DNA of 58,295 nucleotides, taken from the IMG/VR virus record IMGVR_UViG_3300049489_000494, positions 1-58,295 of that record; one strand, 5' to 3'. Origin of the DNA: a virus. Lineage: Duplodnaviria > Caudoviricetes. A model generated the notes under the pieces. That model saw only the letters and a list, made by a program, of their open reading frames with translations. It did no database searches and was not told the DNA's origin. Below, one piece after another: positions 1 to 58,175 of the stretch; position 1 is the first letter of the stretch; every line of letters starts with the position of its first letter. The position numbers were made by a program, and so were the translations under genes.

Positions 1-127
1 GATATGACCGAATTACTGACACAGAATGGGAAGATGCGGAAATCATCTGAGAATAGTGAATATGTAACATATAACTGGGGTATACCCGCATATAAGTCGA
101 GGACAGGACTAGTCACATGCCCTATGG
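1..127. repeat. 127-bp terminal direct repeat, identical to 58169-58295; circular assembly overlap
   Basis: The ends match exactly; 127 is a common maximum assembler k-mer; the repeat cuts through gene 1. Confidence 0.95.
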
Positions 128-690
128 CAGGCTCATGCGGTCGGTTGGGCGGTTGCTACGCACTACAGGGCTCATATACATGGAGGACGGTTGCCAATGC
201 CTACGAATGGAGACTAGAACAGTCACTGAGTGATTCATTCGTTCAGCTCATGAGTGATGCAATTGCAGTGAAGCAGAGGACTGCTATCAAACATAATAAG
301 CGACTAGTAATTAGAATCCATGACTCCGGTGACTTCTACTCCATGGAATATATACGGAAATGGCTGGAGATTATACACAGAAATGCAGATGTGCAATTCT
401 ATGCATACACGAAACAGGTGCCTATATTCCGTAGATTGGAATTGCCTATTAACTTCACAGTTATATACAGTGAGGGTGGATTGGCTGACGATAGAATCAA
501 TACAGCAACCGACCGTCACAGCCGAGTATTCAGCTCACTCGATGAGCTGCATGCAGCTGGATATGACGATGCAACTGAGGATGATTCTGTAGCATGGCGA
601 TCTACCACAGGTAGAATCGGGCTGGTGTATCACGGCTATAAGTCGAAGCAGTGGACGACTAATAATAATAATGAACAACAAGTAGCATGA
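4..690 (+). CDS. GP88-family protein (Cys cluster, possibly radical-SAM-like)
   Basis: CPMAGSCGRLGGCYA Cys cluster, plus RIHDSGDFYS and FYAYTK motifs typical of phage gene product 88. Confidence 0.75.
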   Translation: MTELLTQNGKMRKSSENSEYVTYNWGIPAYKSRTGLVTCPMAGSCGRLGGCYALQGSYTWRTVANAYEWRLEQSLSDSFVQLMSDAIAVKQRTAIKHNKRLVIRIHDSGDFYSMEYIRKWLEIIHRNADVQFYAYTKQVPIFRRLELPINFTVIYSEGGLADDRINTATDRHSRVFSSLDELHAAGYDDATEDDSVAWRSTTGRIGLVYHGYKSKQWTTNNNNEQQVA

Positions 691-905
691 GGTGTGATAT
701 GCGTATAATAGATCTAACACTAGGTGACTGTGATATCGATATAGAATTAGCTGATTCAGTGGTCGACGTGTATGTATCGGGCGGATATTCGAATACAATG
801 GAGCGTGACCTCCATGATATCGAACTCGATCTGATACAGGAATTATATGCAGAGCTGATTGCTCAATATGCATGGGAGTCTGGGAGATGTATCAACCACA
901 ATTGA
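687..905 (+). CDS. hypothetical acidic protein
   Basis: ATGA overlap with gene 1; an alternative ATG lies after GAGGTG. Confidence 0.6.
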   Translation: MRCDMRIIDLTLGDCDIDIELADSVVDVYVSGGYSNTMERDLHDIELDLIQELYAELIAQYAWESGRCINHN

Positions 906-985
906 ACATAGGAATGGACAGTGTATCTATAATAGACACGACAATTAACCATAATTGCGACTACAATGGTCGCACTGGAGTCAAC

Positions 986-1693
986 ATGAGTAAGCAATTA
1001 TCCACTAAGTATGCACCAATTGATCTACCTACAATTGTCACCAATACGGTCGATCTACTGAGTGAGCGTGGTATTACGACACAGGTGTTCAGTAGGCGCG
1101 CTAAGTCTGGCAACCAACAATGTGTCGAGTTGCGGTTAACTAATCGGGATGTATCAGTGTTCGGAGATACATGTAAGCCCCGTATCCTACTATATAATTC
1201 TAATAATGGCACTAGTGCATTCCGTGTGCAGATTGGTATTTACAGACTAGTATGTAGTAATGGACTCACGATCGGACAGAATATATATAGCGAGCGAGTG
1301 ACTCACATAGTTGGACAGAAGTTCGATAGTGCAATGGATGCCATTGAATGGAAGATAGCAGCAGCTATTGAGGTGCTCAATTCAGTAATTACACAATTAC
1401 GGGGATTACCTCTAGGTGAGGATATATCACTAGTACAGGAACATGTACTAACTAATACACTAGGGTTCAGTCCGACACTGACTGCTGAGATAATCAAGTC
1501 ATTACAATCACCTACACGTAGGAGTGTGGATATGGGCAACCTGTGGGGATACTACAATGTGGTCAATGAGGTACTGCGTCAGAGGTCTCGCTCCGAGTAC
1601 CGTAATGAGGTTATCAATGCGACACTCATGGATGATATCATTGCGGCATATATTAATATGATGAATCCAACTCCAACTACACTAGCTGCATGA
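986..1693 (+). CDS. DUF932/DUF945-family protein
   Basis: LLYNSNNGTSAFRVQIGIYRLVCSNGL signature; GGAG RBS before ATG 986 (the ORF track starts at 872). Confidence 0.8.
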   Translation: MSKQLSTKYAPIDLPTIVTNTVDLLSERGITTQVFSRRAKSGNQQCVELRLTNRDVSVFGDTCKPRILLYNSNNGTSAFRVQIGIYRLVCSNGLTIGQNIYSERVTHIVGQKFDSAMDAIEWKIAAAIEVLNSVITQLRGLPLGEDISLVQEHVLTNTLGFSPTLTAEIIKSLQSPTRRSVDMGNLWGYYNVVNEVLRQRSRSEYRNEVINATLMDDIIAAYINMMNPTPTTLAA

Positions 1694-1702
1694 GGTATAT
1701 AC

Positions 1703-1921
1703 ATGAGTAGTAGAATGGGCAGTGTATATGACAGTGTGTATGACAGTGTGTGGGGCAGTGTGAGGGGCAGTGTGAGGGACAGTGTGAGGGACAGTGTGAG
1801 TGACAGTGTGTGGGTCAGTGTGATTGACAGTGTGAGGGACAGTGTGAGGGGCAGTGTGTGGGACAGTGTGTGGGGCAGTGTGTGGGGCAGTGTGTGGGAC
1901 AGTGTGAATACTGAGGACTGA
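1703..1921 (+). repeat. 12-bp tandem-repeat mini-gene, copy 1 (MSSRM-(D/G/V)SV(Y/W/R/S/I)x16-NTED)
   Basis: Unit G(A/G/T)C-AGT-GTG-NNN; GAGG RBS upstream; open frame of 72 aa. Confidence 0.9.
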
Positions 1922-1959
1922 CTGCTAATTAGCAACTAATTATTGACATATAATGAGGT

Positions 1960-2187
1960 GTGAATATGAACTATTACAGCAATACAACGGGATATCTAAC
2001 ATGGGAACAGTGGACTAGGCGACTACTGAGACAGACTCAATCTAGTAAGCCAGTACTAGTCATCAATCGCATAACTAATCAGATTGAGGATGCACACATC
2101 AATAATGCGCCAATCCTAGAATCTGAGATGATTGATATAGCTGAGTTAGTTAGATTGGAGGATGGGATGGAGGATACTGATGAGTAG
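1960..2187 (+). CDS. hypothetical protein
   Basis: ORF with GAGG RBS between repeat copies 1 and 2. Confidence 0.6.
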   Translation: MNMNYYSNTTGYLTWEQWTRRLLRQTQSSKPVLVINRITNQIEDAHINNAPILESEMIDIAELVRLEDGMEDTDE

Positions 2188-3366: not shown

Positions 3367-3367
3367 T

Positions 3368-3424: not shown

Positions 3425-3466
3425 TTAACAATTGCGTGCATTCATATGCTCGCTAGGAGAATCAAT

Positions 3467-4438
3467 ATGAGCAGTAGTAGTAATACTAAGAAGAATAAGA
3501 AGCAAATAATAGATAAGTTGACACCGGAACAGGAAGCGATGATGCCTATCTATGTAGAGCGATGCACTGCAATCGGCAGAACTACTCAGACATGGGATCA
3601 ATTCACTGCACCTGATAATCAGGCTGCAATTCGCTCACTCATCACAGAGATCTATACCAATGGCGGAGTAACAATGCCTACCGATATCAGGCTAGTCCGT
3701 AACCCACAGGAGGGTATTGATCTAGTCTCATCACTCACAGGTAATACTAAGTATAGTACACTCAATCAGTCATGTTATGGGTCGCATGACATCTCATGGC
3801 TCTCATTCTATATGTTCTGCCACTACGAACTTAACCTACGGGAGGAGACTGCTCGCCTCAAGCCGTTCTGGGAATTAGCCACGAAGTGTGGATGGTGGTG
3901 GCCTCTCTCTGGGGCAGTAGTCATATCACCTATGCCTAGTGCACTGAGACTAGATAAGCAGGGTAGGTTACATGCCGAGGGTGAAGCCGCAGTTGACTAC
4001 TCCAGTCAGCCGTTCGTCTATGCATTACATGGAGTTAGATTTCCAGTGGAGATGGCAATTAAGTGGGTGGTACCTCCAGTCAGTGAACTACCAATAGATC
4101 AGGTACTCAGTATCACTAACACAGAGCAGCGTAGGGAGATAATTAAGAGGATCGGGATACAGAATATGTGGAAGCAACTCAATCCTAGAATGCTAGATAC
4201 AGCGACAATAGCAGGTAATAGCTACCAATTACATGAGATATCATTGACAGGTAATGCATCTAATGATAGAATGAATAGAATATATCTACAGATGCTGAAT
4301 CCCTCAGTCATCGGAGAGATACACATCGAGGGAGTACATCCCGATTGTAGGACTGTGGAACAAGCACTCAACTGGCGCAACTTCGGTACTGTGGATGTAT
4401 CTACTGGTAGATTCGTACCACCACAGGTATTGACATGA
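3467..4438 (+). CDS. DUF6745-family protein
   Basis: YGSHDISWLSFY, CGWWWP...ISPMP..LRLDKQGRLHAEGEAAVDY, LHGV, NTEQRRE, and C-terminal NPS...EGVHP...QALNW motifs; AGGAG RBS before ATG 3467. Confidence 0.8.
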   Translation: MSSSSNTKKNKKQIIDKLTPEQEAMMPIYVERCTAIGRTTQTWDQFTAPDNQAAIRSLITEIYTNGGVTMPTDIRLVRNPQEGIDLVSSLTGNTKYSTLNQSCYGSHDISWLSFYMFCHYELNLREETARLKPFWELATKCGWWWPLSGAVVISPMPSALRLDKQGRLHAEGEAAVDYSSQPFVYALHGVRFPVEMAIKWVVPPVSELPIDQVLSITNTEQRREIIKRIGIQNMWKQLNPRMLDTATIAGNSYQLHEISLTGNASNDRMNRIYLQMLNPSVIGEIHIEGVHPDCRTVEQALNWRNFGTVDVSTGRFVPPQVLT

Positions 4439-4742
4439 GTAGTAGTAGAATGGGCAGTGTATATGACAGTGTGTATGACAGTGTGTGGGACAGTGTGTAT
4501 GACAGTGTGAGTGACAGTGTGTGGGACAGTGTGAGTGACAGTGTGTGGGACAGTGTGTATGACATTGTGAGGGACATTGTGAGGGACAGTGTGAGGGGCA
4601 GTGTGAGGGGCAGTGTGTGGGACAGTGTGAGGGACAGTGTGAGGGACAGTGTGAGTGGCAGTGTGAGGGGCATTGTGTATGTCAGTGTGTATGTCAGTGT
4701 GTGTGGGGCAGTGTGAGGGACAGTGTGAGTACTGATGGATAA
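4435..4742 (+). repeat. 12-bp tandem-repeat mini-gene, copy 4 (longest, about 23 units; ORF 4435-4716)
   Basis: ATGA-coupled to the DUF6745 stop; same MSSSRMGSV leader; an extra GT near 4700 shifts the last units out of frame. Confidence 0.9.
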
Positions 4743-4911
4743 TCTATATAGTACACTAATATACCAGATACACAATATAACACTGGTAGATGTCAATCAC
4801 AGGACACCACATGATATATGGTTGATATGGAGAGGATATCATGTAGGAATGATAATGTGGGACAGTAACTCAATAATAGGTATCAACATAGATAGGAGTA
4901 TATATGAGTGA
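4735..4911 (+). CDS. small hypothetical protein (58 aa, MDNLYSTLIYQ...WLIWRGY...)
   Basis: Open frame read manually; fills the gap between repeat copy 4 and ORF 4904, overlapping both. Confidence 0.5.
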   Translation: MDNLYSTLIYQIHNITLVDVNHRTPHDIWLIWRGYHVGMIMWDSNSIIGINIDRSIYE

Positions 4912-5347
4912 TGTATTAATGAACGGAATTGAAAATGAAGTGACAGTACCGAGTGCAACGAGGTACTGGCAACAGGGTGATGTACTACTAATGGCAGTAG
5001 CAGCACTGCCAGAGGGATGTACTGCAATTAATCCAGAGTCTAATGGTGATGTAATACTACAACATGGTGAGACTACTGGACATATGCATAGGTTCCGTGG
5101 CAGTGAGTTAGCTGCAGCCAATACTCAGGTGCAACTCTACGCCTCCACACTACCAATTACAGGCGGGGAATCAGTGGCTAATATCACTGAGCTAGGGGAT
5201 ACACGTAGATATATTGTGATCGGAGATACTGTACTCCTCAGACATGAGGAGCACAATCCAGTACAATTACCAGCAGGTACCTACGAGATCGACATCGTGC
5301 GTGAGTTCGACTATGAGTCTCATGAGATGCGTCGAGTCGTTGACTGA
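4904..5347 (+). CDS. conserved DUF6745 partner protein (QGDV / GExTGHxH / HEEH motifs)
   Basis: QQGDVLL, HGETTGHMH and LRHEEHNPVQLPAGTYEI..VREFD motifs; His-rich putative metal site. Confidence 0.75.
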   Translation: MSDVLMNGIENEVTVPSATRYWQQGDVLLMAVAALPEGCTAINPESNGDVILQHGETTGHMHRFRGSELAAANTQVQLYASTLPITGGESVANITELGDTRRYIVIGDTVLLRHEEHNPVQLPAGTYEIDIVREFDYESHEMRRVVD

Positions 5348-6282: not shown

Positions 6283-6781
6283 TATCAGTGTACAAGTACT
6301 ACTATGTGGGATTGCACTCATGAATCTACATGGAGCTAGGATGCATGATGATCAGTGGGATTCGTTGATAGCACTAGCATCTCATTCCGATAATACCGAT
6401 GTAGCAATAATCGGGTGGATGGAATCTCGCTACCATTATAATATCAGGAGTAGTGCGGGGGCGATAGGGGTGATGCAGGTAATGCCGAGAACTGCACGTG
6501 GTATTGCAATTGAGTGTGGTGTATCTGATATACATTACAGCAGTCCTCTGCCAACTGTCGCAAGACAGTTGACTAATCCAGATATAAATGTTAGAATAGG
6601 TATATGCTATTGGGAGATGATGCTGCAACTGACTGGTGATAGAATAAGTAAGGCGCTAATAGCATACAATGCAGGATTAACTAGACGTAATAATAATGTG
6701 GCACTACTGCCACGTGAGACAATTAACTACGTTACACAATTCCATGTGTACAGAGAGGAGCTAGGACAATGTCGAGACTGA
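6272..6781 (+). CDS. SLT-family lytic transglycosylase with hydrophobic N-terminus
   Basis: Catalytic ES motif (WMESRY), SSAGAIGVMQVMPRTA, NPDINVRIG, AYNAG, LPRETINYV. Confidence 0.9.
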   Translation: MLGSISVQVLLCGIALMNLHGARMHDDQWDSLIALASHSDNTDVAIIGWMESRYHYNIRSSAGAIGVMQVMPRTARGIAIECGVSDIHYSSPLPTVARQLTNPDINVRIGICYWEMMLQLTGDRISKALIAYNAGLTRRNNNVALLPRETINYVTQFHVYREELGQCRD

Positions 6782-7527
6782 GGATTACTACTTATATTAT
6801 CATCACATGGCTACTATTCAATGTGATACATGCTATTACAGCTAGAGCATCCAGCTACAATGCAGTACCTGAGCGTACATTATATATCACAGGTTCCATA
6901 GGAGGACTCTCAATTCTCAAGCAAGCACAGCAACTCCTGAACATGAGTGACTCATCACATGATCCTATCTATCTAGTTATCAACTCACCTGGTGGTGAGG
7001 TAATTACAGGCACACAATTCGTCAGTGCTATGCGTGTGGCGAAGGCACGTGGAGTAGTCCTCAAGTGCCTAGTACCAATGGCTGCAGCATCAATGGCATT
7101 CATTATCTATAACGAGTGCAGCGAGAGATATGCTCTCTCACAGTCGCTATTCCTATGGCATTCCATACGCAGTATGTTATTAGGTGTCTACACTCCAGCT
7201 GAATTAGGAATCATACAGGCAGATATGCTTAGATTCCAATCCAATTTCGACTCACTCATGCAGAGTGAATTAGATATCTCAGCTGAGGAATTCTATTATC
7301 ACTACCACAATAACTCATTACTACCAGCACTATATCTACACTCCATATCACCCTATTACATGACACTAGTAGATGATATAACTGGAGTACTCAATGTGTA
7401 TGATGTAGTGGGTACTGGTGGGGATAAGAGGGAGCAGGGTGAGGTAGGTGAATCTGGTATCAATAATAATCTAATCTGGTTCGGAGAGTGGAACACTAGG
7501 GAGAATACTAATGTCAGAGGACACTAA
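6769..7527 (+). CDS. ClpP/crotonase-fold serine protease with N-terminal signal or TM segment
   Basis: LVINSPGGEV, AASMAF (catalytic Ser), FLWH (His). Confidence 0.8.
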   Translation: MSRLRITTYIIITWLLFNVIHAITARASSYNAVPERTLYITGSIGGLSILKQAQQLLNMSDSSHDPIYLVINSPGGEVITGTQFVSAMRVAKARGVVLKCLVPMAAASMAFIIYNECSERYALSQSLFLWHSIRSMLLGVYTPAELGIIQADMLRFQSNFDSLMQSELDISAEEFYYHYHNNSLLPALYLHSISPYYMTLVDDITGVLNVYDVVGTGGDKREQGEVGESGINNNLIWFGEWNTRENTNVRGH

Positions 7528-9783: not shown

Positions 9784-9938
9784 TCGTCATGTAAATGTGA
9801 GGGATTAGATGTCAGATGCAGTCAGCAGTAAGTCGAAGCGATTGGGTGGATACGCAGGTTATTGGAAGCAGTTAGACATGCTCCACCTAGAATCTTCTAG
9901 GTGGAGTGATACTCAACTACTATCAGGAGTTACGGATA

Positions 9939-45075: not shown

Positions 45076-45196
45076 ATAACTAACTCCTGATATTCGTCCA
45101 TATCCTATGGATATCGATGGAATATCTCAATATTGTCCGTAGGAGTCCCTCACTATGATGGATATCCTATTGTGTATATATTGTGTATATCTCTAT

Positions 45197-45225
45197 ATTA
45201 TATCACATTTATAGTCTAGTGTCAA
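45197..45225 (-). promoter_or_regulatory. consensus sigma70 promoter for the scaffold-capsid operon
   Basis: - strand reads TTGACA-17 bp-TATAAT with extended -10 TG. Confidence 0.85.
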
Positions 45226-45256
45226 TAGTATAATCATTGTATTATCTATACACATA

Positions 45257-47278: not shown

Positions 47279-47280
47279 TG

Positions 47281-47706
47281 TTATTCACTCCGCTTCTTAC
47301 TATTATCACTATTACTACTACTAGTACTACTAGATAGAGCTTTACTTGCTTGTAATTGTGCCCTGAGCTCGGACATACGAGCTGGATTGAGATTGACACC
47401 ACGATGATCTAATTGCCCATATCTCATTAATATAGGATCCATCATACATAGAAGTTCAATCTCTCTATTACTCAACTTCTTCTTACTCATCAGACGATTA
47501 TATAGACCACGTACTAGATCCCACTCATATTCAGAATCATATCCAGATTCAATCATCTCTAGAGATTCTCGTATAATCTCCTCCGGTGTCTGTCTACTAC
47601 TACTACTCTGCTTAGGTGTAGCTACTACAGGTTCTGGAGTAGGTGTCTCTATCATTATCTGTATAACTTGCCTACGTGATTTCCTATTACTACCAGGTGT
47701 ATGCAT
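47281..47706 (-). CDS. hypothetical protein
   Basis: GGAGG RBS; between terminase and portal. Confidence 0.65.
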   Translation of the reverse strand: MHTPGSNRKSRRQVIQIMIETPTPEPVVATPKQSSSSRQTPEEIIRESLEMIESGYDSEYEWDLVRGLYNRLMSKKKLSNREIELLCMMDPILMRYGQLDHRGVNLNPARMSELRAQLQASKALSSSTSSSNSDNSKKRSE

Positions 47707-47711
47707 AGTAG

Positions 47712-47867
47712 TTACTGCCTCCAGTTATTAGTGAATTTAATATTGAGTAGATTGCGACGAATCTCTGCCATCTCATTCCTGAGTCTCATATTACGCCACA
47801 TTATTAGTACGTTAATAGGTAACATTATATGTAGTGAGAATATTAGTGCAATAATTAACGATTCCAT
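47712..47867 (-). CDS. small membrane protein (51 aa, MESLIIALIFSLHIML...)
   Basis: Open frame read manually; AGGAG upstream; fills the gap. Confidence 0.45.
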   Translation of the reverse strand: MESLIIALIFSLHIMLPINVLIMWRNMRLRNEMAEIRRNLLNIKFTNNWRQ

Positions 47868-50311
47868 CTAGATCTAACTCCTCTACCTATTCTACTATTC
47901 CCATTTCTAATACTCTGATTGCGCTGCTTCCTACGCTCATTCTCTAGGTATAACCACTCATGCCATGCTACAGGCTTGAGATTAGGATCTGCCTTCGGTA
48001 TTAGATCAGCGAAGTATTGAGCCGTATCTAGGAGATGGTAGCTCGATGCATTAACAATACGTGATTCTCCATTAGGAGCCCATCTACAACTACGGAATTC
48101 TCCGATTAGATTAGTACACTTCGGTGATATCAATAATCTAACTCCTAATGAACTACGTAAGCCCATTATTAGTTCAGCCTTTCTACTATTCTTATCATAG
48201 GGAGACATATATGGAGGGGTGATTCCAGCTGCAGCAGCTCTACCTAGATACCATGCCTCATGTGGATCACATATTCTCCTGATTATATTAACATGTCGAG
48301 TGCGCTCACGCATCTCCTCTACAATTCGAACAGGATCTAGTATATCCTCTATATACTCAGCAACTATACAATACCATATAGATGTAGCAGGATCCTCTGC
48401 CCAGAGTGTATATCCGAACTTAGACTTCAGTGCAGGATCTACTGATTCTACATGTCTCCATTGTGGGGAGTAGTTAATAGGCTCACGTACATGGATAGCA
48501 GGATCGAGCTCATATACAGAATCCTCACCAACAGACCATGCTCCATAGAGGATAGTATTGCGATACTCCTCTGTATATCCATTCAACTTATCTAGTTCCT
48601 CTTGTATACGAGCTGCATACAGTGGGTTATCCAATTTACTGAGTGAATACTTCCGGCCAGTAGGTTCACTAGCACTATCTACAATCTTCCTAATCTCATC
48701 ATTCCTGAACTTAGGAGTGAAGGTGGCTAGGAAGTAGCCATTACGTGCAGCAACTCGCTGTTGGAGCTCCTCTAATACATATATACTAGAAGGCATCTCA
48801 TCTAACCACACATAGTGAGCAACATAACCCTGCATGTGCTTCCTATGTTTCTCCGAACTATCATTATGTGATAGGAATACAATTGTATCTCCAGTATCAA
48901 TATTCTCTACTGACTGCAGAGATCCACCAACACGCCTCTCCTTCCATTTACTAGTATCTAGGAATTGTGCCAGCTTCTTCCCCCAGAGTTCTATGTCCAT
49001 CATCTTCCGGTCCTGACCTGCTACTATTATTAGTAGTGGTTCAGTTCCCCACTCAGCTGGACGTACCCATGTTGGATGTGTATTAGTTAGAATCCATGTG
49101 ATCTCACGAGCAGCTAGACCCGACTTACCTGAGTTATGAGTTACTAATCCATTTGCTAGACAGTATAGATTAGTTGAGGACTCAACATGTATATCATATG
49201 TATTCACTAACTCAGTAGATCCATTGTGCTTAGCTCCAATCCAATCAGGATTAGTTCTAGTAGCTACTAGATCTGAATATTCTGGCTTCCATTTCTTACT
49301 AGGAGTTACTAGATATGGATCTAACTCATGTAATATACGCTTAGAATATGCATTATTAGCACATCTAATTGAATATGTAGGGCCATTTACGAACTTATCC
49401 CTATCATTAGTATATATAGTTAATTGTGTCTGCCATAGAGCTAGAAATGCATATTGTAGTACTTCCAATACTGTCCTAGCTTGCATCTCAGTCGATATAC
49501 ATAATGTATTCCAACTATCCATGTAGATAGATCCATCAGTATCTATAATACCAGCTACGAATGCTAGTAATGTATCTCTATCCCATCCTCTAACTACATT
49601 GATATCTACCCATTTCTCATGAGCATATCTATCTCGGCACCATTCATTGTAGTACTTAACCTCAGCTCTGCCTATATGCCATGTATAATTCTCACCACCA
49701 CACTTAACTGCAGTAGTTCCACATATATTAGACAACTTATTAGGTATATTAGAATCAGCTGATGATATATAGATCTGCTTACCACCAGCCATACTACATC
49801 CATCACCTAGTAGTGCAGCTATTGCATAGGCCATATCAGGTTCATGTATACTACCAAGTGGAGTATTAAGTTCAACTCGACGAATCTGACTATCTCTATG
49901 GAATTTATCCACAGTTCTCTCACCATCCCTAGTTAGAAATGTATGGTTAGTTGTACACTTAGCTTGAATCATTCCTCTATTAGTTAGAGTTACTACTTCA
50001 CGGGGTCCATTATTGAATACCTGCAATACTCTGATAGGAGAACCATGTTCATTATATACTAGATCATCTATCCTGAGCTCCTCAATTGGTATTGGACCAT
50101 GAGGAGTTGCTACTAGGGTGCCCTCAGCTAGACATTGATTTCCTGCTACTACCCACCTGAATTTGATGAGTCCTATATCGTCTAGTATTGTCTGCTGAGC
50201 TGCTGTAGGTCTGGACGTAACATCAGACGGATCGAAGCATTCTGCTAATTGCAGTTGCCGCATTCTATTAACTGCGGATGCTACTAATTGTTGTTGTCTG
50301 ATGTCGGCCAT
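47855..50311 (-). CDS. terL: terminase large subunit, intein-interrupted
   Basis: Walker A AGNQ/SGKS re-forms after intein removal; Walker B VWLDE; FTP coupling motif; nuclease VDP...HLLDTAQY; likely start MADIRQ at 50311. Confidence 0.92.
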   Translation of the reverse strand: MADIRQQQLVASAVNRMRQLQLAECFDPSDVTSRPTAAQQTILDDIGLIKFRWVVAGNQCLAEGTLVATPHGPIPIEELRIDDLVYNEHGSPIRVLQVFNNGPREVVTLTNRGMIQAKCTTNHTFLTRDGERTVDKFHRDSQIRRVELNTPLGSIHEPDMAYAIAALLGDGCSMAGGKQIYISSADSNIPNKLSNICGTTAVKCGGENYTWHIGRAEVKYYNEWCRDRYAHEKWVDINVVRGWDRDTLLAFVAGIIDTDGSIYMDSWNTLCISTEMQARTVLEVLQYAFLALWQTQLTIYTNDRDKFVNGPTYSIRCANNAYSKRILHELDPYLVTPSKKWKPEYSDLVATRTNPDWIGAKHNGSTELVNTYDIHVESSTNLYCLANGLVTHNSGKSGLAAREITWILTNTHPTWVRPAEWGTEPLLIIVAGQDRKMMDIELWGKKLAQFLDTSKWKERRVGGSLQSVENIDTGDTIVFLSHNDSSEKHRKHMQGYVAHYVWLDEMPSSIYVLEELQQRVAARNGYFLATFTPKFRNDEIRKIVDSASEPTGRKYSLSKLDNPLYAARIQEELDKLNGYTEEYRNTILYGAWSVGEDSVYELDPAIHVREPINYSPQWRHVESVDPALKSKFGYTLWAEDPATSIWYCIVAEYIEDILDPVRIVEEMRERTRHVNIIRRICDPHEAWYLGRAAAAGITPPYMSPYDKNSRKAELIMGLRSSLGVRLLISPKCTNLIGEFRSCRWAPNGESRIVNASSYHLLDTAQYFADLIPKADPNLKPVAWHEWLYLENERRKQRNQSIRNGNSRIGRGVRSRWNR
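49133..50134 (-). mobile_element. 334-aa intein with LAGLIDADG homing endonuclease
   Basis: Starts CLAEGT, block B CTTNHTF, ends YDIHV...LVTHN followed by Ser; AALLGDG and AGIIDTDG motifs. Confidence 0.93.
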
Positions 50312-50366
50312 TGATATTCCTGTGAGCATTACAGTATTAATATACCGTGTGTTGTCTACTGACAAC

Positions 50367-50756
50367 TCACTGCTCCTGTATTACTCTAACCTCATTCACA
50401 GTTAGTGCGGATCCAGCTCCGGTGGTCACTACTACTCGCATACTAGATCTTAGTGGTAGATATGTCCAATCTGCTGAATCATTAGCTAGTAGTCGAATTG
50501 AGTAGATACCATCTGCGGTAATCGCTACCGACTTAGCATCTACCGCCTGAGTAGTGAATCCATCGCTAGATGACTGGAGGATAGCAGTGATACCACTACC
50601 TACAGTAACTCCACTGACTACTATATCAACTACCATGTATAGAGCTCCTCCAGCAGTCACCCTACGACTCTTACTAATAGGTTCCTTCACTAGAGATGCT
50701 CCATATGATGTAGCAGCTCCATATTCAATTCCATCCATTATCCATGCATTACTCAT
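50367..50756 (-). CDS. beta-rich hypothetical virion accessory protein
   Basis: GGGAG RBS; beta-sandwich-like alternation. Confidence 0.6.
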   Translation of the reverse strand: MSNAWIMDGIEYGAATSYGASLVKEPISKSRRVTAGGALYMVVDIVVSGVTVGSGITAILQSSSDGFTTQAVDAKSVAITADGIYSIRLLANDSADWTYLPLRSSMRVVVTTGAGSALTVNEVRVIQEQ

Positions 50757-50789
50757 TCTGATTACTCCCGTATTTATATCATTACTATG

Positions 50790-51305
50790 TTATACTATAC
50801 TATTACTATATAATTCCAACCACTCATCTAGAGCTCTAGGTCCATCTACTTCTAATCTAAGAGGTACAGGTAATCCTAGTATATCGATGAGTATATATCC
50901 TATTAGTTCACTGCACACTAATGTACGGGTACCGTCTGATGTAGGATTGGCACCTAATCTGAGTAATCTAGTTAGACCCATACCTAATATCTGTAGTGAT
51001 CCGTACTCCCGACCTGCTGTTAGGATACAGTATCTCATTAGTTCCTGATGCTGCTTCTCCGTCATATGTAGAGTATGTCGCTTAACTACTACATGATTAT
51101 GATCAAACTGTATCGCCCCCACGAATCTAACACCAGTTCCAACTGCTTCGTAGTTCAATTCTACATCCAATGTAGGTGAACGCCACTGTATTCCTACATG
51201 TGAATATGGAGTGCCCTCAACTGCCCTAATAGCGTAGGATAGAGGAGCGAAGCCTCTAGGTCTTGTGAATACTATATCTAGTTGTATTGAGGAACTACTA
51301 CTCAT
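50790..51305 (-). CDS. permuted papain-like NlpC/P60 (YiiX/YebB-like) hydrolase
   Basis: His before Cys: YSHVGI...YEA...GREYG...LVCSELI. Confidence 0.8.
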   Translation of the reverse strand: MSSSSSIQLDIVFTRPRGFAPLSYAIRAVEGTPYSHVGIQWRSPTLDVELNYEAVGTGVRFVGAIQFDHNHVVVKRHTLHMTEKQHQELMRYCILTAGREYGSLQILGMGLTRLLRLGANPTSDGTRTLVCSELIGYILIDILGLPVPLRLEVDGPRALDEWLELYSNSIV

Positions 51306-51306
51306 A

Positions 51307-51957
51307 TCATGTCTTCTTATGTAGGAAGAAGTTACACTTCACAGATACAGTACTATTACCTGTATTAGTATAGACAATACGTATATATAGATTAGCTAAT
51401 ATACGTGCTGGATAATCCACCCTAACAGTTCCCTGATCCTGCTTAGATGAGGAGATCTGCCAATTAGTTGCGAATTCATTGAGTACTAGTCCAGCTCCAT
51501 ATCCTAGTACATTATCTACATCAACAACCTGGAACTTAATAGAATCTGTGAAGTTGTGATTCATGAGTATTAGTTGAGCCTCATTAATCCATCTCTCCTC
51601 AGTTAGTCGATAATCAATATTGGATACTGAGTTGGCAACTGCCTCCCCAATCACCCCTACTCCACGGAATAGATATCCATCTGTATTATTGAATGCTCTA
51701 GTTCTGATTATAGGATAACCATCGCTATCTAGATTAGGTATATCCTTGAGGTAGTTAATTGCTCTACTAATATCAGTTATATCACTACTACCATCATTAA
51801 CTACAGCAATTCCTGTAGCTATATGAGTTAATAATAGAGAGTCATTGGCCCATCTACTCAACTCCTGAGATTGAATCTCATACTGATCACTAGCCGCAAT
51901 CTCCATACCTGCATAGGTATGTGGTACTGAATCTACATTTCTAATTATATATAACAT
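51307..51957 (-). CDS. hypothetical virion-associated protein
   Basis: Clean ORF; likely start MLYIIRN. Confidence 0.6.
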   Translation of the reverse strand: MLYIIRNVDSVPHTYAGMEIAASDQYEIQSQELSRWANDSLLLTHIATGIAVVNDGSSDITDISRAINYLKDIPNLDSDGYPIIRTRAFNNTDGYLFRGVGVIGEAVANSVSNIDYRLTEERWINEAQLILMNHNFTDSIKFQVVDVDNVLGYGAGLVLNEFATNWQISSSKQDQGTVRVDYPARILANLYIRIVYTNTGNSTVSVKCNFFLHKKT

Positions 51958-51958
51958 A

Positions 51959-52423
51959 TCAATCCGGCTCCACCGATAACCAACATATAGGTCTAGCACA
52001 ACTACCAGATGTCACCTTAACCTGAATTTCGTCATTCGCACTCATTGCTGCTGATAATCCAGTTGTAATCCCAGCTCTTGATGATGTGAGTGAGGCTGTA
52101 GTTACAGTTGTAGGTCCAGACCTCTTCTGTATTGTAACAGTGAATGTAGCATTACTCTCACATACTAGAGAGATCTCTCTTAGTATACAATTTCTCACTA
52201 CCACATAACCAGCCTTATCTGAATCCACATTGGAATTGAATTCTAGGAAGCGACCAGAGGAGGCATTACCATCGAAGCCTGCACAGATTACATATCGACC
52301 CTTAGATGAGGCATTATTATTCACCTCCTCGATAGCGGCCTGTACATCTATAGCAGTGAATCCATTAGTTGAATTATTGAATGGAGTAGATGATGCAACC
52401 TGTGACTTAATAGGACCAGACAT
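51959..52423 (-). CDS. virion accessory protein
   Basis: TAIDVQAAIEEV motif, common in fibre and decoration proteins. Confidence 0.6.
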   Translation of the reverse strand: MSGPIKSQVASSTPFNNSTNGFTAIDVQAAIEEVNNNASSKGRYVICAGFDGNASSGRFLEFNSNVDSDKAGYVVVRNCILREISLVCESNATFTVTIQKRSGPTTVTTASLTSSRAGITTGLSAAMSANDEIQVKVTSGSCARPICWLSVEPD

Positions 52424-52424
52424 A

Positions 52425-52799
52425 TTAGCTCAATTCCCCTATTGCTATCTTCTTACCAGCACCACTAGCAATTAACCAGACAGCTACTCCTATAGGTAGC
52501 ATGAGGAATTCTCCCTTGAATAGTTCCATGCCAGTAGTTGTAGTTACTCCACTGGAGTAACCATAGTAGATATCATTATCTCTAGGTCTCATTACTACAT
52601 ATTTCCTATTAGCTAGAGCAGATGCTCCGACCTTCAACTCAACAGCAGTAGTTCCTATTGTTAATTCAGCATGGAGACCACTAGTTCTAGCTATATCATC
52701 TATACGTAATTGATCTAGGGTATTACCTATCGTTACTCCGGTAGTGGAGCCCCTCAGGTATACGTCATCGTTATCATCCTGTCCGAATGGAGGGCACAC
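52425..52799 (-). CDS. small beta-sandwich protein, paralog family A
   Basis: NRKYVV...IYYG...VTTTTGMEL. Confidence 0.6.
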   Translation of the reverse strand: MCPPFGQDDNDDVYLRGSTTGVTIGNTLDQLRIDDIARTSGLHAELTIGTTAVELKVGASALANRKYVVMRPRDNDIYYGYSSGVTTTTGMELFKGEFLMLPIGVAVWLIASGAGKKIAIGELS

Positions 52800-52850
52800 T
52801 AGTGAATTCCTCCTCCATTAGTTAATTGTATTATTAACACACTATACATA

Positions 52851-53087
52851 TCACCCCTGATTATTCTCAGATTCAGTATTAGGTTCTGTCTCTGCAACTC
52901 TAACTACCTCAAATACATTAGCTCTAATTCTAGGTATTAGTTGAGATTGAGCCCATCCTAGTAGACGTACATACTCAATCATATCTAACTGCTTAATTGT
53001 GAATTCAGCATGTGAATTAATCATATTGAGTAACTTGATTAACTTCGATACATCGTCCTCTGAGAACTTATTATTAGGTAGACTCAT
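52851..53087 (-). CDS. hypothetical protein
   Basis: AGGAG RBS; has its own promoter. Confidence 0.65.
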   Translation of the reverse strand: MSLPNNKFSEDDVSKLIKLLNMINSHAEFTIKQLDMIEYVRLLGWAQSQLIPRIRANVFEVVRVAETEPNTESENNQG

Positions 53088-53148
53088 ACTACTCCTATTA
53101 CCACTCCTGAATTAGAATATGGCGGGAGCACGTATGCCCCCACCACCT

Positions 53149-53177
53149 ATTATACATTATTGTATATGCAATGTCCA
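53149..53177 (-). promoter_or_regulatory. sigma70-like promoter
   Basis: - strand reads TGGACA-17 bp-TATAAT in an intergenic gap. Confidence 0.65.
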
Positions 53178-53207
53178 CTACTATCTAGTATTACATTAAC
53201 TATATAA

Positions 53208-54335
53208 CTAGCTAAGTTCCAATGCCCTAACTTCGTTAGTACCAGTAGAACTAATTGCATATATATTAATAGCAGAACCAGCTCTCATTTCCATATATGA
53301 ACGAGGAGACAGTGGGAATCCATCTGCATCTGTAACACCTGAACCACCTAGATATACCTTATGTTCGCCATTATTATATAGGAATAAGTACTTACGGTTA
53401 GTTAGATCAGATGCAATGATATCAGTAGCAGTTGTAGTGATATCCTCTACTGTATTAACTATAGCTGTATTAGCTAGAGCTACGTCACCTGATGTAGTAC
53501 TTAGAGCAACTCTTAATTCATTACTAGAATTCATTGAGAATGGGACGTAATCACCATCAGCAGCGAATGGTCCACCAGCATCAGATCTAACAGCTAGAGA
53601 CATCATACCCATATGACCGCTAGAGTGAACTGAATCCTCAGCATGAGATAGGCTCTCGATCTCACTACGGATAGCAGTAGTATCTATACGGATCTGATCT
53701 GCATCTGCTTCGATATTATCTAGGGATGTATTAGCTGATTGTAACTCAGTGATGATACTAGATGTATCTATGTCGATTGCAGCAACTGATGCTTCGATTG
53801 CATCGAGTGACGCATTAGCTAGTACTAATTGATCGTAGCTATCCTTATCGTGAACCCAGAGCTCTCCATTGGAGTTCACATTGAATGATGCATAGTCACC
53901 ATCAGCCGATGTACCAGATGATCTAGTATCACGACGAACTGCTAGACTGAATGCTCCTAGATCTCCACTGACATGGGCAGAATCCTCTGCATATACATAG
54001 TCGAAGTCTACATCTAGATCTGCTAGAACATGTAGAGCTCCGCCAGTAGATCTGAGTCTATCCCAGTTATCACCAACTGAGTCATATCCATAATTGAAGG
54101 ATCTAGAATCCAATCCCCGGAATGTATTGGCAATATTATCCGATGCTCCAGTACCACTAGTTATAGCATTACCAGAACCATCGAAGAGAGCAGATGCTAC
54201 ATTGAGCCAGTCCTCACTATTGATCGACTTCGTATCGATCAGTGTTCCTGTGTTGGTGAGTAGATGCGACCCCACCTTATCGCTGTCTGCAATTGTAGCT
54301 GCAGACGTTGCATTGAAGTGCAGTTGATCTTTCAT
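53208..54335 (-). CDS. virion accessory protein with duplicated AEDSxHxSG...ADGDY domain and C-terminal family A domain
   Basis: YAEDSAHVSGDLG...ADGDYASF and HAEDSVHSSGHMG...ADGDYVPF; NRKYLF...VYLG...GFPL. Confidence 0.7.
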   Translation of the reverse strand: MKDQLHFNATSAATIADSDKVGSHLLTNTGTLIDTKSINSEDWLNVASALFDGSGNAITSGTGASDNIANTFRGLDSRSFNYGYDSVGDNWDRLRSTGGALHVLADLDVDFDYVYAEDSAHVSGDLGAFSLAVRRDTRSSGTSADGDYASFNVNSNGELWVHDKDSYDQLVLANASLDAIEASVAAIDIDTSSIITELQSANTSLDNIEADADQIRIDTTAIRSEIESLSHAEDSVHSSGHMGMMSLAVRSDAGGPFAADGDYVPFSMNSSNELRVALSTTSGDVALANTAIVNTVEDITTTATDIIASDLTNRKYLFLYNNGEHKVYLGGSGVTDADGFPLSPRSYMEMRAGSAINIYAISSTGTNEVRALELS

Positions 54336-54412
54336 GATTACTCCTGTATATGTGTGTGATCACCGAGCAATATGCTCAGTTAGTTATTGATTGATATACC
54401 TAGCATTAATTA

Positions 54413-54763
54413 CTACGACCAACTAATAATCTCCATTAATTGACCAGATCCAGCAGATTGCACATATATTGTATATACTACTGTAGGATCTAGATTATTC
54501 TCTCTACTCATAGATCTAGGTGCCATCTCGTAGTAGTTAGCTACTGTATTTCCTGCTATATATGCTACCTGTAGTATTCTACTACCGACATTATGTAGTC
54601 TGAATCTGACAGTACCTAGAGGTAGAGTATAGGAATACTCAGTAGCTGCTGCTGGTATTGATAATCGCTGTATAATATTAGGTGATGACGCAATTAGACC
54701 ATCAACTGTAGTTGTAGTACTACCTGTATCTAGGGAGCCACCTGTAGGTGTGAACTTCGACAT
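54413..54763 (-). CDS. small beta-sandwich protein, probable family A relative
   Basis: RFRLHNVG...LQVAY...IYVQS pattern. Confidence 0.55.
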   Translation of the reverse strand: MSKFTPTGGSLDTGSTTTTVDGLIASSPNIIQRLSIPAAATEYSYTLPLGTVRFRLHNVGSRILQVAYIAGNTVANYYEMAPRSMSRENNLDPTVVYTIYVQSAGSGQLMEIISWS

Positions 54764-54835
54764 ACTAAGTAATACTCCAGTTCATATCTATAGGAATAGA
54801 TATATTAATGCGAACTCGATTAATTACACAGCACA

Positions 54836-55483
54836 TTAACTAGTCGCCTCTATCAATCGCACATCTATAGATGTACTACCAACTGCATAGATCTCCTGAC
54901 CTGCCTCTATATCTATACCGATACACTCACCACCGCCCATCGGATAACCGATTGTAGTGGTAGCCTCTGCTAGCTTGAATCCGATGTATAGTATGGAATT
55001 AGGTGTATTATTCTTGATGACGATACCTGCCCTATCTACCAGTGCAGCTGGAATCAGTAGTGCGGGTGTAGTTGTAACTGGTGCTGGAGATGCTCTAAGT
55101 TCAGTTGCACCCAGGATACGGGCACTAGTTGTACCTGATCCCATTCCACGACCCACTACTTGTAGATTACATGATCCTGTATATTCTATAACTAATATAG
55201 AATTAGACATGGTATCTGCCGACTTCTTGAGTAGGAGATCGGTAGTAGGTGCAGTTATCTGTGGGAATCTGATGATCTCAACATCCTCACCAGGAGATGT
55301 ATACGTCAGTACATATACATCTAATGTTCCACTAGTTAGCGTACGTACGTATAATGAGACTAGTAATGAATCTGAATCTAGAACAAAGGAGACACGACGA
55401 GATCCAGAGCCTACTAATTCTCCATTGAATAGAGAATGAGACTCTGATCTACCTATACGGTAGCTATGGTTAGATGATGACAT
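54836..55483 (-). CDS. two-domain beta protein with C-terminal family A domain
   Basis: DRAGIVIKNN...LYIG...GYPM...IYAVG...VRLIE. Confidence 0.6.
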   Translation of the reverse strand: MSSSNHSYRIGRSESHSLFNGELVGSGSRRVSFVLDSDSLLVSLYVRTLTSGTLDVYVLTYTSPGEDVEIIRFPQITAPTTDLLLKKSADTMSNSILVIEYTGSCNLQVVGRGMGSGTTSARILGATELRASPAPVTTTPALLIPAALVDRAGIVIKNNTPNSILYIGFKLAEATTTIGYPMGGGECIGIDIEAGQEIYAVGSTSIDVRLIEATS

Positions 55484-56039
55484 CTAATAATCCCTCAGAT
55501 AGGGCCTGATCTGCAGTCATTATATAATCACTGGTGCATCGCCTGCGCCAGTATTGAGCATTCTTACTACTATCCATCACACTACTACGTAGAGCATAGA
55601 TGTCATACATCTGCTTCCGTATAATGCGGGAATGATCAGCCCATCGTTCGAATGATATCGCCCCCGTCTCACTCGAATTAGTACCATCATGTATCATTAT
55701 TGTTGAGTGGCGTGTGGCCTCCCGTACATCTCCTGCCTGGAGAATAATGGAGGCCATCGACATTGCCTGTCCAACTACTCTGATACTTACCTCATGTGGT
55801 AGTGCACTGATGACATCGTATATCGCTATACCATGTTCCCAATCACCACCCTCAGAGTTGAGGTATATTACAATGGGCTGATCGCCCGACTTCCTTAGTA
55901 TATCTATGTTAGTGAGTGTCCTAGAGGTTAACTCCAGATCAATCTCACCGAATATGTTGATACTACGTGCTTCAACTGAGAGTCCCCATTCATGATATCG
56001 ATCAATCGAATCACCCCTTGTTGCCCTCCCCATCGCCAT
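55470..56039 (-). CDS. clpP: ClpP-family protease
   Basis: IYLNSEGG...GIAIYD, QAMSMASIILQAG (Ser), IMIH (His), DYIMTADQALSEGLLD (Asp). Confidence 0.9.
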   Translation of the reverse strand: MAMGRATRGDSIDRYHEWGLSVEARSINIFGEIDLELTSRTLTNIDILRKSGDQPIVIYLNSEGGDWEHGIAIYDVISALPHEVSIRVVGQAMSMASIILQAGDVREATRHSTIMIHDGTNSSETGAISFERWADHSRIIRKQMYDIYALRSSVMDSSKNAQYWRRRCTSDYIMTADQALSEGLLDVII

Positions 56040-56547
56040 CCGTATTATCTCCGTCTGCTAACTGTCGTTGATTCTGATTACCAGTATTGATTGTAACACC
56101 CTGTCTATCTAACCACTGCTGGAGCTCGTGTGGACCCATTCTATTGATCCTCTCATCTAGCAACTTCTCCTTAGCATACTTCCGTGGCATCTTATCAGTT
56201 GCCTCTAGGAGTAGCTTCGCTGCATTCACCCTAGCACTTGCATTAGCATCTGGATCTACCAGTAATTGTTCTAGGGTATCTAGAGCTATATGTGCTAGAT
56301 ACTCGGTCCTCTGTCTGAATTCATCCCTATTAGTGAACCATTCCCTGAATCCAGGTTGTGACCACCACTTCGACACCCGACCGTCATTAGTTATCTGCAT
56401 CACTGCAGCTAGTGTGATTGAATTACTGTCAGTAGTGGGATTATCACCCCATACTGCCCAGTATGCTGCCTTAACCTGTCTCTGTGTCGGAGTAGGTACA
56501 TATACCATATCCTCCACCAATGCTGCTATATTACTCAGATTACTCAT
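56011..56547 (-). CDS. putative terminase small subunit / HTH protein
   Basis: SKWWSQPGFREWF and ASARVNAAKLLLE helices; near the start of the packaging operon. Confidence 0.55.
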   Translation of the reverse strand: MSNLSNIAALVEDMVYVPTPTQRQVKAAYWAVWGDNPTTDSNSITLAAVMQITNDGRVSKWWSQPGFREWFTNRDEFRQRTEYLAHIALDTLEQLLVDPDANASARVNAAKLLLEATDKMPRKYAKEKLLDERINRMGPHELQQWLDRQGVTINTGNQNQRQLADGDNTDGDGEGNKG

Positions 56548-56565
56548 CTATATATACTCATATCA

Positions 56566-56946
56566 CTAGTGCTTCAGCTTGGGTATATCGAATCCATTGA
56601 GTCGGAGCATGGTCTCAATCTCAGCCTCAACCTCCTGCTCTAATTCGAATTCGATTGGATCATTGGCATCCCCAACTACAGCTACATGGAGGAATCGGTC
56701 CTCCGGTATATTGACCGCTAGAGTGGCTAATCCCCTCCTGGATACGTCCAGATCTCGGATATAGCCCTGAGCCTCCAACCATGTTAGATACTCTCTGAGT
56801 CGTCCTAATGGGACTCTGAGATGTCTAGAGAATGGTCCTAGCTGTATATCTACAGTATCTCCCATCCACTCCATGAACTGGAAGCGGCCCCACATTATTA
56901 GAATGAGACACTTGAATGGATTTAGTCTATGTTTTCGAGTGCCCAT
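56566..56946 (-). CDS. putative winged-helix DNA-binding protein
   Basis: FSRHLRVPLGRLREYLTWLEAQGYI pattern; first gene after the leftward promoter. Confidence 0.5.
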   Translation of the reverse strand: MGTRKHRLNPFKCLILIMWGRFQFMEWMGDTVDIQLGPFSRHLRVPLGRLREYLTWLEAQGYIRDLDVSRRGLATLAVNIPEDRFLHVAVVGDANDPIEFELEQEVEAEIETMLRLNGFDIPKLKH

Positions 56947-56975
56947 GTTATCCTAATACTAGTTGCCATGTAATT

Positions 56976-57004
56976 ATTGTATCATAGTTAGACAGTGAAG
57001 TCAA
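56976..57004 (-). promoter_or_regulatory. leftward sigma70 promoter (virion block)
   Basis: - strand reads TTGACT-17 bp-TACAAT with extended -10 TG. Confidence 0.7.
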
Positions 57005-57107
57005 GTGTTAATTATTATTAATAGTAGTAGTGTAGTAGTGATATTACTGGTCGAACTAACTACTAGATAGATAACAATCGATAATTACTAGTCTATCTAG
57101 ATAGTAG

Positions 57108-57135
57108 TTGACAATTCTGTGGTATGTGGTATAAT
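57108..57135 (+). promoter_or_regulatory. rightward consensus sigma70 promoter
   Basis: TTGACA-16 bp-TATAAT with extended -10 TG. Confidence 0.8.
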
Positions 57136-58028
57136 TAGAACATAGAGAGACTCATAGGAGTAATCATTGATGACATAGAAATCATAGATAATCACCTCTA
57201 TGCCCCTATGCCCTACTGGCGGGGTTAATTATATGATACATAGATTCATAGTATAGTTATACACTACATAGTAGTATCACTAGTGATACATTGAATCTAA
57301 GTATCTATGTAGTACTACATAGCAGTACCTATTGAATAGGGGCTCACTAGGTACACTACCTCATCTCTCGACATCCTACCTATCTCTACTCCTATTCCTA
57401 CTTATATATGCATTCTACCTATTAATTGAGTACTGGTTGTCAATAATGTACCTATTCGTGGGGGCGATATTACTCGGTCTCTATAGGGGCTCTATCTATC
57501 GAATATCATTATATATAGGAGCTAGTTACCAGTCCGACTCATAGCACCTCCCCGAGAATGTGAGGGGGTAACTTGCGATCTAGTCGAACATCAACCCACT
57601 TCCCGATTGGTCGATTGGCCAGTCAATTCATATATTCGATCCTACCACCCATTCATGATGCAATACCGCACGTGCGGTGACTAGTGTGTTGTGTTAGTAG
57701 TGGGGAGAAGTACGTCACCCCCCAATATCCTACGGTATACACGATGCAGTGACGCCTCTCCCTATTCATTATATACTATCCAACAATTGCCCAATTATAT
57801 GACGCATGTCTATATAGAGGGATATTCTATTAATATTCCAGTGATATCATATACATACGCACAATTAACTCATATAATTGACTAATCCATCGTCAATTCA
57901 CCCCTCAATGATTCCGCATAGTTAGCTAATCACCCCTAGAATTCATCAATGATATCACGGCTGGCATTAGTCCTGCAATATCTAGTTACGTCAGGCGATG
58001 AGTTAACCAGATAGAATGAGGTGAACTA

Positions 58029-58175
58029 ATGAGAATCGATTACTACATAGACAGCACAGGGTTCTATTGGGCTTGTATTCATAACGGTGATAGTACATAT
58101 AAGCATATCTATCTAGGTATGACTAATCGTGAGCAAACGCGAATTGATATGATACATAGATTGGGGGTGATATGA
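58029..58175 (+). CDS. small hypothetical protein (48 aa, MRIDYYIDSTG...)
   Basis: GAGGTG RBS; ATGA-coupled to gene 1 across the circular junction. Confidence 0.6.
   Translation: MRIDYYIDSTGFYWACIHNGDSTYKHIYLGMTNREQTRIDMIHRLGVI

Follow-up and report, generated by a model that had tools for sequence, protein, structure and literature searches.

The window analysed here, record IMGVR_UViG_3300049489_000494 of IMG/VR at its full length of 58,295 nucleotides (nt), is the entire record of one virus from a freshwater-sediment metagenome, with a GC content of 41.2%. It is examined for the near-complete loss, throughout the genome, of the trinucleotides AAA and TTT, accompanied by a loss of AAG and CTT. 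Bases 1-127 are an exact copy of bases 58169-58295, and this 127-bp terminal assembly overlap indicates a circularly closed assembly with a unique length of 58,168 bases. The phage is a member of a clade of uncultured podophages of about 60 kb; two of its relatives, G002 and G003, are assigned by IMG/VR to the class "direct terminal repeats."

Coding sequence makes up 91% of the genome, and a ribosome-binding 4-mer core of the GGAG type lies upstream of 50 of the 77 genes. Such strong GGAG Shine-Dalgarno sites speak against a host in the Bacteroidota. No tRNA genes were found in the genome, and more than 35 small open reading frames (ORFs) have no family match. In a cultured-phage collection, there was neither a nucleotide match to the window nor a match to its portal protein, and the family A DNA polymerase (PolA) had only matches of at most 27% identity among the 30 records listed. 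Relatives of the large terminase align over only about 420-430 aa, which, together with a Hint-domain match, suggests that an intein probably interrupts the terminase of the window (Table 1).

Table 1. Features of the window, with depletion given as observed/expected ratio (O/E).
Feature	Coordinates	Strand	Observation
Whole genome, AAA/TTT and AAG/CTT purge	1-58295		k-mer counts, 1-kb bins
Early/replication block: GP88, DUF932, DUF6745, SLT lysozyme, ClpP-like, Cas4-like nuclease, PolA, SF2 helicase, metallophosphoesterase	4-22188	+	AAA/TTT O/E 0.02-0.12 per kb
DUF6745 gene and its 147-aa partner (4904-5347)	3446-5347	+	both in AAA-poor relative G001, absent from two normal relatives
ClpP-family gene among early genes	6769-7527	+
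Family A DNA polymerase (PolA)	9906-12158	+	unusual motifs common to non-depleted relatives
Structural/packaging block: P22/SU10-like portal, TerL with intein, capsid, SU10-like adaptor, fibers, 1720-aa protein	22165-56946	-	AAA/TTT O/E 0-0.28 per kb
Second gene with significant AAA/TTT excess	27480-28310	-	10 sites, O/E 0.23, p = 2.5e-3
Fiber gene, weakest depletion	38446-40317	-	20 AAA/TTT, O/E 0.20, Poisson p = 1.3e-4 vs genome-wide depleted rate
Large terminase, 836 aa	47855-50365	-	Hint (intein) domain match at residues 78-116
ClpP-family gene, prohead-protease type, upstream of terminase on the late strand	55470-56039	-
Largest intergenic region	56947-58122		depleted like genes; 57-58 kb bin: 1 AAA/TTT vs 57 expected

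On both strands together, AAA/TTT occurs 228 times against about 2,950 expected (O/E 0.077), a 13-fold purge in which about 2,700 sites have been lost. The loss of AAAA/TTTT is 50-fold (17 sites vs 868 expected, O/E 0.02), and the 6 AAAA and 11 TTTT start positions that remain fall in 15 runs of at least four bases. The original prediction, which had described AAA/TTT as scarce and counted about 13 AAAA/TTTT sites by eye, had listed 13 of these 15 runs, missing those at 40080 and 42305, and the depletion is stronger than it had estimated. Every 1-kb bin is depleted (AAA/TTT O/E 0-0.28). When A and T runs are classed by length, the O/E is 1.38 for single bases, 1.005 for runs of two, 0.133 for three, 0.030 for four and 0.016 for five, with a sharp break between two and three: A/T pairs are tolerated and triplets are not. 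The ratio for runs of four is closer to the square of the run-of-three ratio than to that ratio itself, and the base that follows TTT shows no preference for W (A or T), with an O/E of 0.06 for TTTG, 0.09 for TTTA and 0.16 for TTTC.

Contigs from three other runs (one RNA library and two freshwater DNA libraries, belonging to two studies other than the source) carry pieces of the phage with no differences, which shows that the odd composition is not an assembly artifact, an origin that the original prediction had already considered unlikely. A homopolymer-compressed assembly was likewise rejected, since AA and CC runs are present and the pieces in other runs are identical. This comparison was made with contigs, which held no variants usable for polarizing changes; stretches without cover in runs X2-X4 carry no meaning. 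In the RNA run X2, a sediment metatranscriptome compared with positions 36001-56000 of the window, 16 contigs were identical to the phage, those listed lying at 39.1-44.5 kb and 54-55.9 kb; they may represent transcription of the phage in situ or carry-over of phage DNA into the RNA library.

Codon choice is affected throughout. Phe is encoded by TTC in 95% of cases and Lys by AAG in 84%, and CTT makes up 2% of Leu codons (29 of 1477). These choices run counter to the genome's own third-base preference, with the opposite use found elsewhere (GAT 83%, AAT 85%, CAT 77%); for Lys and Phe, a codon choice against the AT bias had been noted beforehand.

The depletion survives a control for codon usage, of the amino-acid-preserving kind that the original prediction had proposed. 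The null was a synonymous-codon shuffle within genes (200 rounds), which keeps both amino acids and codon usage. AAA was seen 31 and 38 times in the two phases that are out of frame vs 168 and 446 in the shuffle, and TTT 6 and 18 times vs 101 and 247. Similarly, the 4,533 bases of intergenic DNA contain 7 AAA vs 142 expected and 6 TTT vs 157 (O/E 0.04-0.05), and off-frame and intergenic depletion after the codon-preserving shuffle is 5-20-fold. The junctions between codons tell the same story: codons preceding a TT-starting codon end in T in 2.2% of cases vs a baseline of 36.8%, and those preceding an AA-starting codon end in A in 2.4% vs 30.5%. These junction measures correspond to 0.06-0.08 of baseline in the window vs 0.69-0.80 in the non-depleted G002 and G003. 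The avoidance thus acts at the DNA level, independently of strand, frame and coding status, and the counts bear out the earlier statement that it affects both strands and intergenic DNA. RNA-level toxins, whether targeting tRNA-Lys or acting as A-rich RNases, were rejected, because the triplets are lost to the same degree out of frame, on the antisense strand and between genes.

Overall, the O/E of AAG/CTT falls only to 0.40, since Lys has to be encoded by AAG. At codon junctions, where choice exists, the loss is 5-12-fold: codons preceding an AG-starting codon end in A in 4.6% of cases (baseline 30.5%), and T follows a CT-ending codon in 1.4% (baseline 17%). Intergenic DNA holds 20 AAG vs 86 expected and 16 CTT vs 81. 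The fate of TT depends on its 5' neighbor, with an O/E of 1.06 after A, 0.62 after G, 0.40 after C and 0.08 after T, and the 3' neighbor has little effect. The avoided set in the window genome is AAR/YTT (R, purine; Y, pyrimidine).

Some other words also depart from expectation. CGCG has 3 sites vs 105 expected and remains at 0.16 even relative to the genome's own trinucleotides, with CG at 0.48 overall. The abundance of CTAG and TA steps that had been pointed out earlier is real (517 CTAG sites, O/E 2.42; TA 1.24), but it carries no separate signal: relative to the genome's own trinucleotides, CTAG stands at 1.09, and the excess is a compositional by-product that arises because AA/TT steps are replaced by AG, AT, CT and TA steps. 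In addition, TAT has an O/E of 1.37 in the window, and clade members carry a 1.3-1.7-fold excess of TCT/AGA.

Proteins, too, have changed under this strong pressure. Lys and Phe account for 3.5 and 2.1% of codons, and the portal protein, with 2.8% Lys, has the lowest content among 120 homologs (median 5.1%). Replacement was assessed over 3,305 aligned columns from 11 conserved proteins, using columns in which two normal relatives agree. Lys was kept in 46% (36 replaced by Arg) vs 75% for Arg, and Phe was kept in 55% (20 replaced by Tyr) vs 75% for Tyr; Lys and Phe have thus been replaced in conserved proteins.

Metagenomes contain many homologs of the portal protein, the longest contigs that carry one reaching 55-64 kb. 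Within a 38-row portal tree, the window belongs to a clade of eight with L001, L002, L024, L003, L004, L032 and L035, which received a Shimodaira-Hasegawa-like approximate likelihood ratio test (SH-aLRT) value of 94 from quick tree building and has a portal identity of 53-62% and a GC content of 41-54%. All eight rows are AAA-poor to some degree (O/E 0.07, 0.08, 0.18, 0.20, 0.30, 0.53, 0.62 and 0.63), and the 30 rows outside the clade all have an AAA O/E of at least 0.71. The 62 non-clade loci (789,762 bases) have values of 0.70-1.65 and a median of 1.02, so that the comparison with relatives, which had also been proposed at the outset, confines the trait to the clade. The 30-kb relative G001 is evenly depleted (0.08-0.40 per kb), also at codon junctions, and does not avoid AAG/CTT; in the clade relatives G001, L001 and L024, the AAG O/E is 1.1-1.3. 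The signature is layered and lineage-specific, with AAA/TTT avoided throughout the clade and AAG/CTT as an extra layer in the window. Locus searches with the single DUF6745, 4904-5347 and PolA proteins returned no related loci, and alignment-based PolA and helicase queries returned only non-clade or distant loci; AAA-poor early-region DNA besides that of the window comes from G001 alone.

A sister clade of 19 loci, together with L037, has lost a different word: its GATC O/E is 0.00-0.05 and its AAA content is normal. The 20 GATC-free loci are L005-L015, L018, L019, L022, L023, L029, L034 and L036-L038, with G002 and G003 as two complete genomes of about 60 kb. In the AAA-poor clade, GATC is normal (O/E 0.48-1.84), and scattered members of the family purge CGCG, GCGC, CCGG or GGCC. 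Taken together, these purges suggest that deleting the motif is this phage family's answer to motif-reading pressure and that such a loss can persist throughout a deep clade. In form, the loss of AAA/TTT matches that of GATC, which is the main reason for reading both as the same kind of process.

Some blocks appear to be in the course of conversion. The portals of L003 and L004 are identical, and in both loci undepleted blocks (L003 1-6000 and L004 1-2000; AAA O/E 0.46-1.09) adjoin core genes that are depleted (0.05-0.33), a pattern that points to pieces having been imported mosaically from normal phages and then slowly converted. In the window, the least converted genes are the fiber gene and the 27480-28310 gene of Table 1, and the 38-39 kb bin has an O/E of 0.28; the fiber gene is probably a more recently imported module. 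Per-gene AAG excess was rejected as a sign of import, as it is confounded by Lys-rich proteins.

Contigs of relatives (L083-L086) were found in bins of metagenome-assembled genomes labeled Nanoarchaeia, Saprospiraceae, Oligoflexales and Ca. Thiomargarita nelsonii. The Ca. Thiomargarita contig is AAA-rich (1.65). Since the labels disagree and none of these contigs is AAA-poor, the labels were not used as host evidence, and they probably reflect binning noise rather than hosts.

A 9-mer, GGGGGCGAT, was also noticed in 16 exact copies in the window, 6 on the + strand and 10 as the complement, at 6457, 8800, 10902, 14326, 17983, 23935, 28115, 30049, 35420, 36223, 38561, 39994, 42131, 51112, 55657 and 57460. 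Fifteen copies lie within gene regions, 10 of them on the sense strand.

The explanation placed first here, to which we give about an even chance of being right, is that the purge is driven by selection that acts on each occurrence of a 3-nt word targeted by a DNA-directed defence of the host. According to this proposal, natural selection on the DNA would weed out a word of three bases wherever it occurs, on whichever strand; this word would be AAA/TTT clade-wide and, in the window, also AAG/CTT, which together give AAR/YTT. The strategy would equal restriction-site avoidance, and the agent would be a DNA-directed defence of very low sequence specificity, widespread among the hosts of the clade. 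If each site carried a small chance of a lethal hit, survival would, by our own reasoning, fall off exponentially as sites accumulate, and the loss of any one site would raise survival multiplicatively and be rewarded even though hundreds remain. Both the attribution to a host defence and the choice among defences are our inference. [quoted passage not shown]

Two candidate agents may be considered. The first would be a DarT2-like single-stranded DNA (ssDNA) ADP-ribosyltransferase with strict TTT specificity. The motifs given for DarT2 are TTT/TCT in enteropathogenic Escherichia coli and TTTW in Mycobacterium tuberculosis (PMC7003065, PMC12170906), with a reported need for T at positions 1 and 3, as in TTT, TCT, TNTC and TTTW, and DarTG is described in another report as protecting against phages (PMC11543638). 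Set against this motif set, TTT and CTT are depleted, and TAT (1.37) and TCT (1.3-1.7) are enriched in the window or the clade, so that DarT2 would fit only as a strict-TTT enzyme and only for the clade-wide layer. The literature yielded no paper on motif avoidance as an escape from DarT. The second candidate would be a CRISPR PAM, either of a type I-E-like AAR form or T-rich and of type V. The PAM of Cas12a is TTTV, varying between orthologs (PMC7261169), that of type I-E is AAG or AAY (PMC4246573), and for Lactobacillus crispatus, a carrier of I-E, I-B and II-A systems, the listed PAMs include AAA (PMC13119405). Escape from a TTTV PAM, one of the causes named in the original prediction, agrees poorly with the counts in its strict form: with one PAM per run and T disfavored at position -1, runs of at least four bases should lose no more than runs of three, so that 81 are predicted, and 15 were seen. 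A TTTN PAM is possible, as orthologs accepting TTTT exist, and so is an AAR PAM. As for type I-E-like AAR, AAG, which is its acquisition PAM, is depleted on both strands in the window but not in G001, L001 and L024. None of the three documented readers (DarT2, Cas12a and type I-E) fits fully, and a direct-acting enzyme is slightly favored over a PAM.

Several points weigh against a host defence as the cause. The analysis turned up neither a defence gene nor a spacer or a PAM; a comparison of positions 38001-58000 of the window (20 of 58 kb) with 400 genomes of the class of G009 gave 7 short chance-level matches, of which the 3 inspected had no CRISPR repeats. The depletions published for PAMs are much smaller, their log ratios differing by about 0.05-0.16 (PMC4246573), and the word common to the whole clade is AAA rather than AAG. 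The DarT2 rule of T at positions 1 and 3 leaves CTT unexplained, and the fourth base lacks the W preference. The GC range of the clade implies that the same agent must persist across rather different hosts, which would fit a phage-encoded cause too. In addition, about 228 sites remain, so that escape from any agent is only partial, and the clade itself rests on a quick tree.

A phage-encoded, vertically inherited cause remains a serious rival, if an unlikely one; the clade spans 41-54% GC, and one partial AAA-poor genome was compared. Such a cause could be a DNA hypermodification that is impossible on three adjacent T/A, or a self-sparing nuclease that cuts the host at AAA/TTT. The apparent single origin of the depletion and its stability over a deep clade with a portal identity of 53-62%, at GC contents from 41 to 54%, would be expected of an inherited trait. 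When G001 was compared with two normal relatives, DUF6745, its 147-aa partner, the 141-aa low-complexity product of 47281-47706 and the 50790-52423 block were found in both the window and G001 and were absent from the normal genomes, and the small ORFs without family match leave room for an agent of this kind. However, the phage families of DUF6745 and its partner are large, with hundreds to thousands of members, in contrast to the rarity of the depletion, and the 50790-52423 block looks structural. Moreover, a scan of 55 ORFs (54 with Pfam-A; 40 also or only with PHROGs) gave no match to a thymidylate-synthase-like enzyme or hydroxymethylase, a hydroxymethyldeoxyuridine kinase, PurZ, DpdA/TGT, a methyltransferase or a glycosyltransferase, which leaves the modified base suggested in the original prediction without gene support, and clade-wide purges arise in this family with no need for such a gene, as the sister clade without GATC shows.

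The 147-aa protein encoded at 4904-5347 has conserved GE-TGH-H and HEEH motifs, and a cupin-like reading comes from the His motifs only. It is likely a partner of the neighboring DUF6745 protein, as its structure is similar to part of some longer DUF6745 proteins. Its AlphaFold model (predicted local distance difference test score 47.6) is too poor for a fold search.

Context-specific mutation bias, in which a replication or repair enzyme would mutate runs of three A:T pairs and AAG faster than they arise, is improbable. Composition shifts of this type can also alter amino-acid usage, the imported blocks are only partly converted, and the enriched TCT/AGA lies one step from TTT/AAA, all of which would suit such a bias. 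Against these points, no known polymerase or repair bias yields a 13-50-fold loss of a single trinucleotide that sets in abruptly at length 3, and the AAG layer differs between clade members with the same replication genes. The unusual motifs of PolA were rejected as the cause, since all 3 normal relatives in the alignment have kept the motif B pattern and G003, which is not depleted, also carries the variants of motifs A and C.

Two further explanations are far less credible. Avoidance of A-tract structure, which is stiff and has a narrow minor groove, either to evade AT-hook or H-NS-like silencers and minor-groove sensors or for easier packaging, would agree with the strong depletion of AAAA, AAAT and TAAA and with the enrichment of flexible TA steps. 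However, such avoidance should deplete every narrow-groove AnTm word, yet AATT (0.92), the classic site of this type, and AATTA (1.11) are tolerated, AAG/CTT, which forms no A-tract, is avoided, and the break at three bases lies below the structural A-tract. Silencers of the H-NS type prefer TpA-rich AT DNA, and the TA excess in the window therefore counts against escape from them. Of the original prediction of DNA-level selection against A-tracts, the DNA level stands on the shuffle and the junctions, and the A-tract as its unit does not, nor do minor-groove silencers or sensors; we regard this explanation as very improbable. We give equally little credence to avoidance of slippage, by DNA or RNA polymerase, and of frameshift-prone runs: homopolymers are the classic slippage substrate and the genome is mostly coding, but C and G runs reach 6 bases with CCC/GGG at 0.82, intergenic DNA is depleted like coding DNA, runs of three hardly slip and AAG/CTT is no homopolymer, and the slippage-prone polymerase once suggested is further contradicted by motifs shared with a non-depleted relative. 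Avoidance of ultraviolet thymine dimers was rejected, as TT on its own is as frequent as expected.

The defences that a phage meets leave a fossil record in the form of motif avoidance, which has so far been read for restriction sites of 4-8 bp and, faintly, for PAMs. A 13-fold purge of a 3-mer and a 50-fold purge of a 4-mer, at the cost of Lys and Phe, point to a strong and persistent pressure on every site, and no agent of such low specificity is known to have been tied to genome composition. If a defence is the agent, AAA/TTT (with AAG/CTT) would directly read out its specificity and would provide a cheap k-mer marker for hosts and fellow phages; if a DNA modification or a self-sparing nuclease is responsible, it would be new phage biology. 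In the former case, nature would here have supplied a first "target-less" phage genome, resolved to the trinucleotide, whose word would reveal an unstudied defence in uncultured sediment bacteria. The GATC-free and AAA-free sister clades form a natural comparison pair.

Among known systems, phages with hypermodified thymidine or a replaced base include the SPO1, phiW-14, ViI and M6 types. In these, as in the clade, a genome-wide property at the DNA level is inherited within a lineage, but their biosynthesis genes were not detected in the window and, to our knowledge, avoidance of T/A runs is not a known feature of such phages. DarT2 is the only anti-phage effector known to us with a T-rich motif of 3-4 nt. 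It resembles the putative agent in that either strand, as ssDNA, is a substrate and in that each hit blocks replication, which would produce per-site selection; unlike the DarT2 motifs, however, TCT is enriched here, CTT is avoided and the fourth base shows no W preference.

PAM depletion likewise concerns a motif of 2-4 nt on either strand, and the AAG of type I-E and the T-rich PAMs of type V overlap the avoided words (PMC4246573, PMC12174588). It differs in that the published log-ratio shifts are small compared with the 13-50-fold losses seen here, that the clade word is AAA and that the run lengths misfit strict TTTV. Restriction-site avoidance shares the purge of a short word that is lineage-specific, strand-symmetric and frame-independent, as in the GATC loss of the sister clade and the CGCG loss of the window. 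In contrast to it, the window word is a non-palindromic 3-mer, about 2,700 sites were lost rather than tens to hundreds, and replacement of Lys and Phe was forced; we know of no restriction enzyme with a 3-nt site of the AAA/TTT type. In the open-access literature, supplements excluded, we found no report of AAA/TTT, trinucleotide or A/T-run avoidance in a phage genome, and the closest precedents for this trinucleotide purge, itself without a published description that we found, are restriction-site avoidance and weak PAM depletion.

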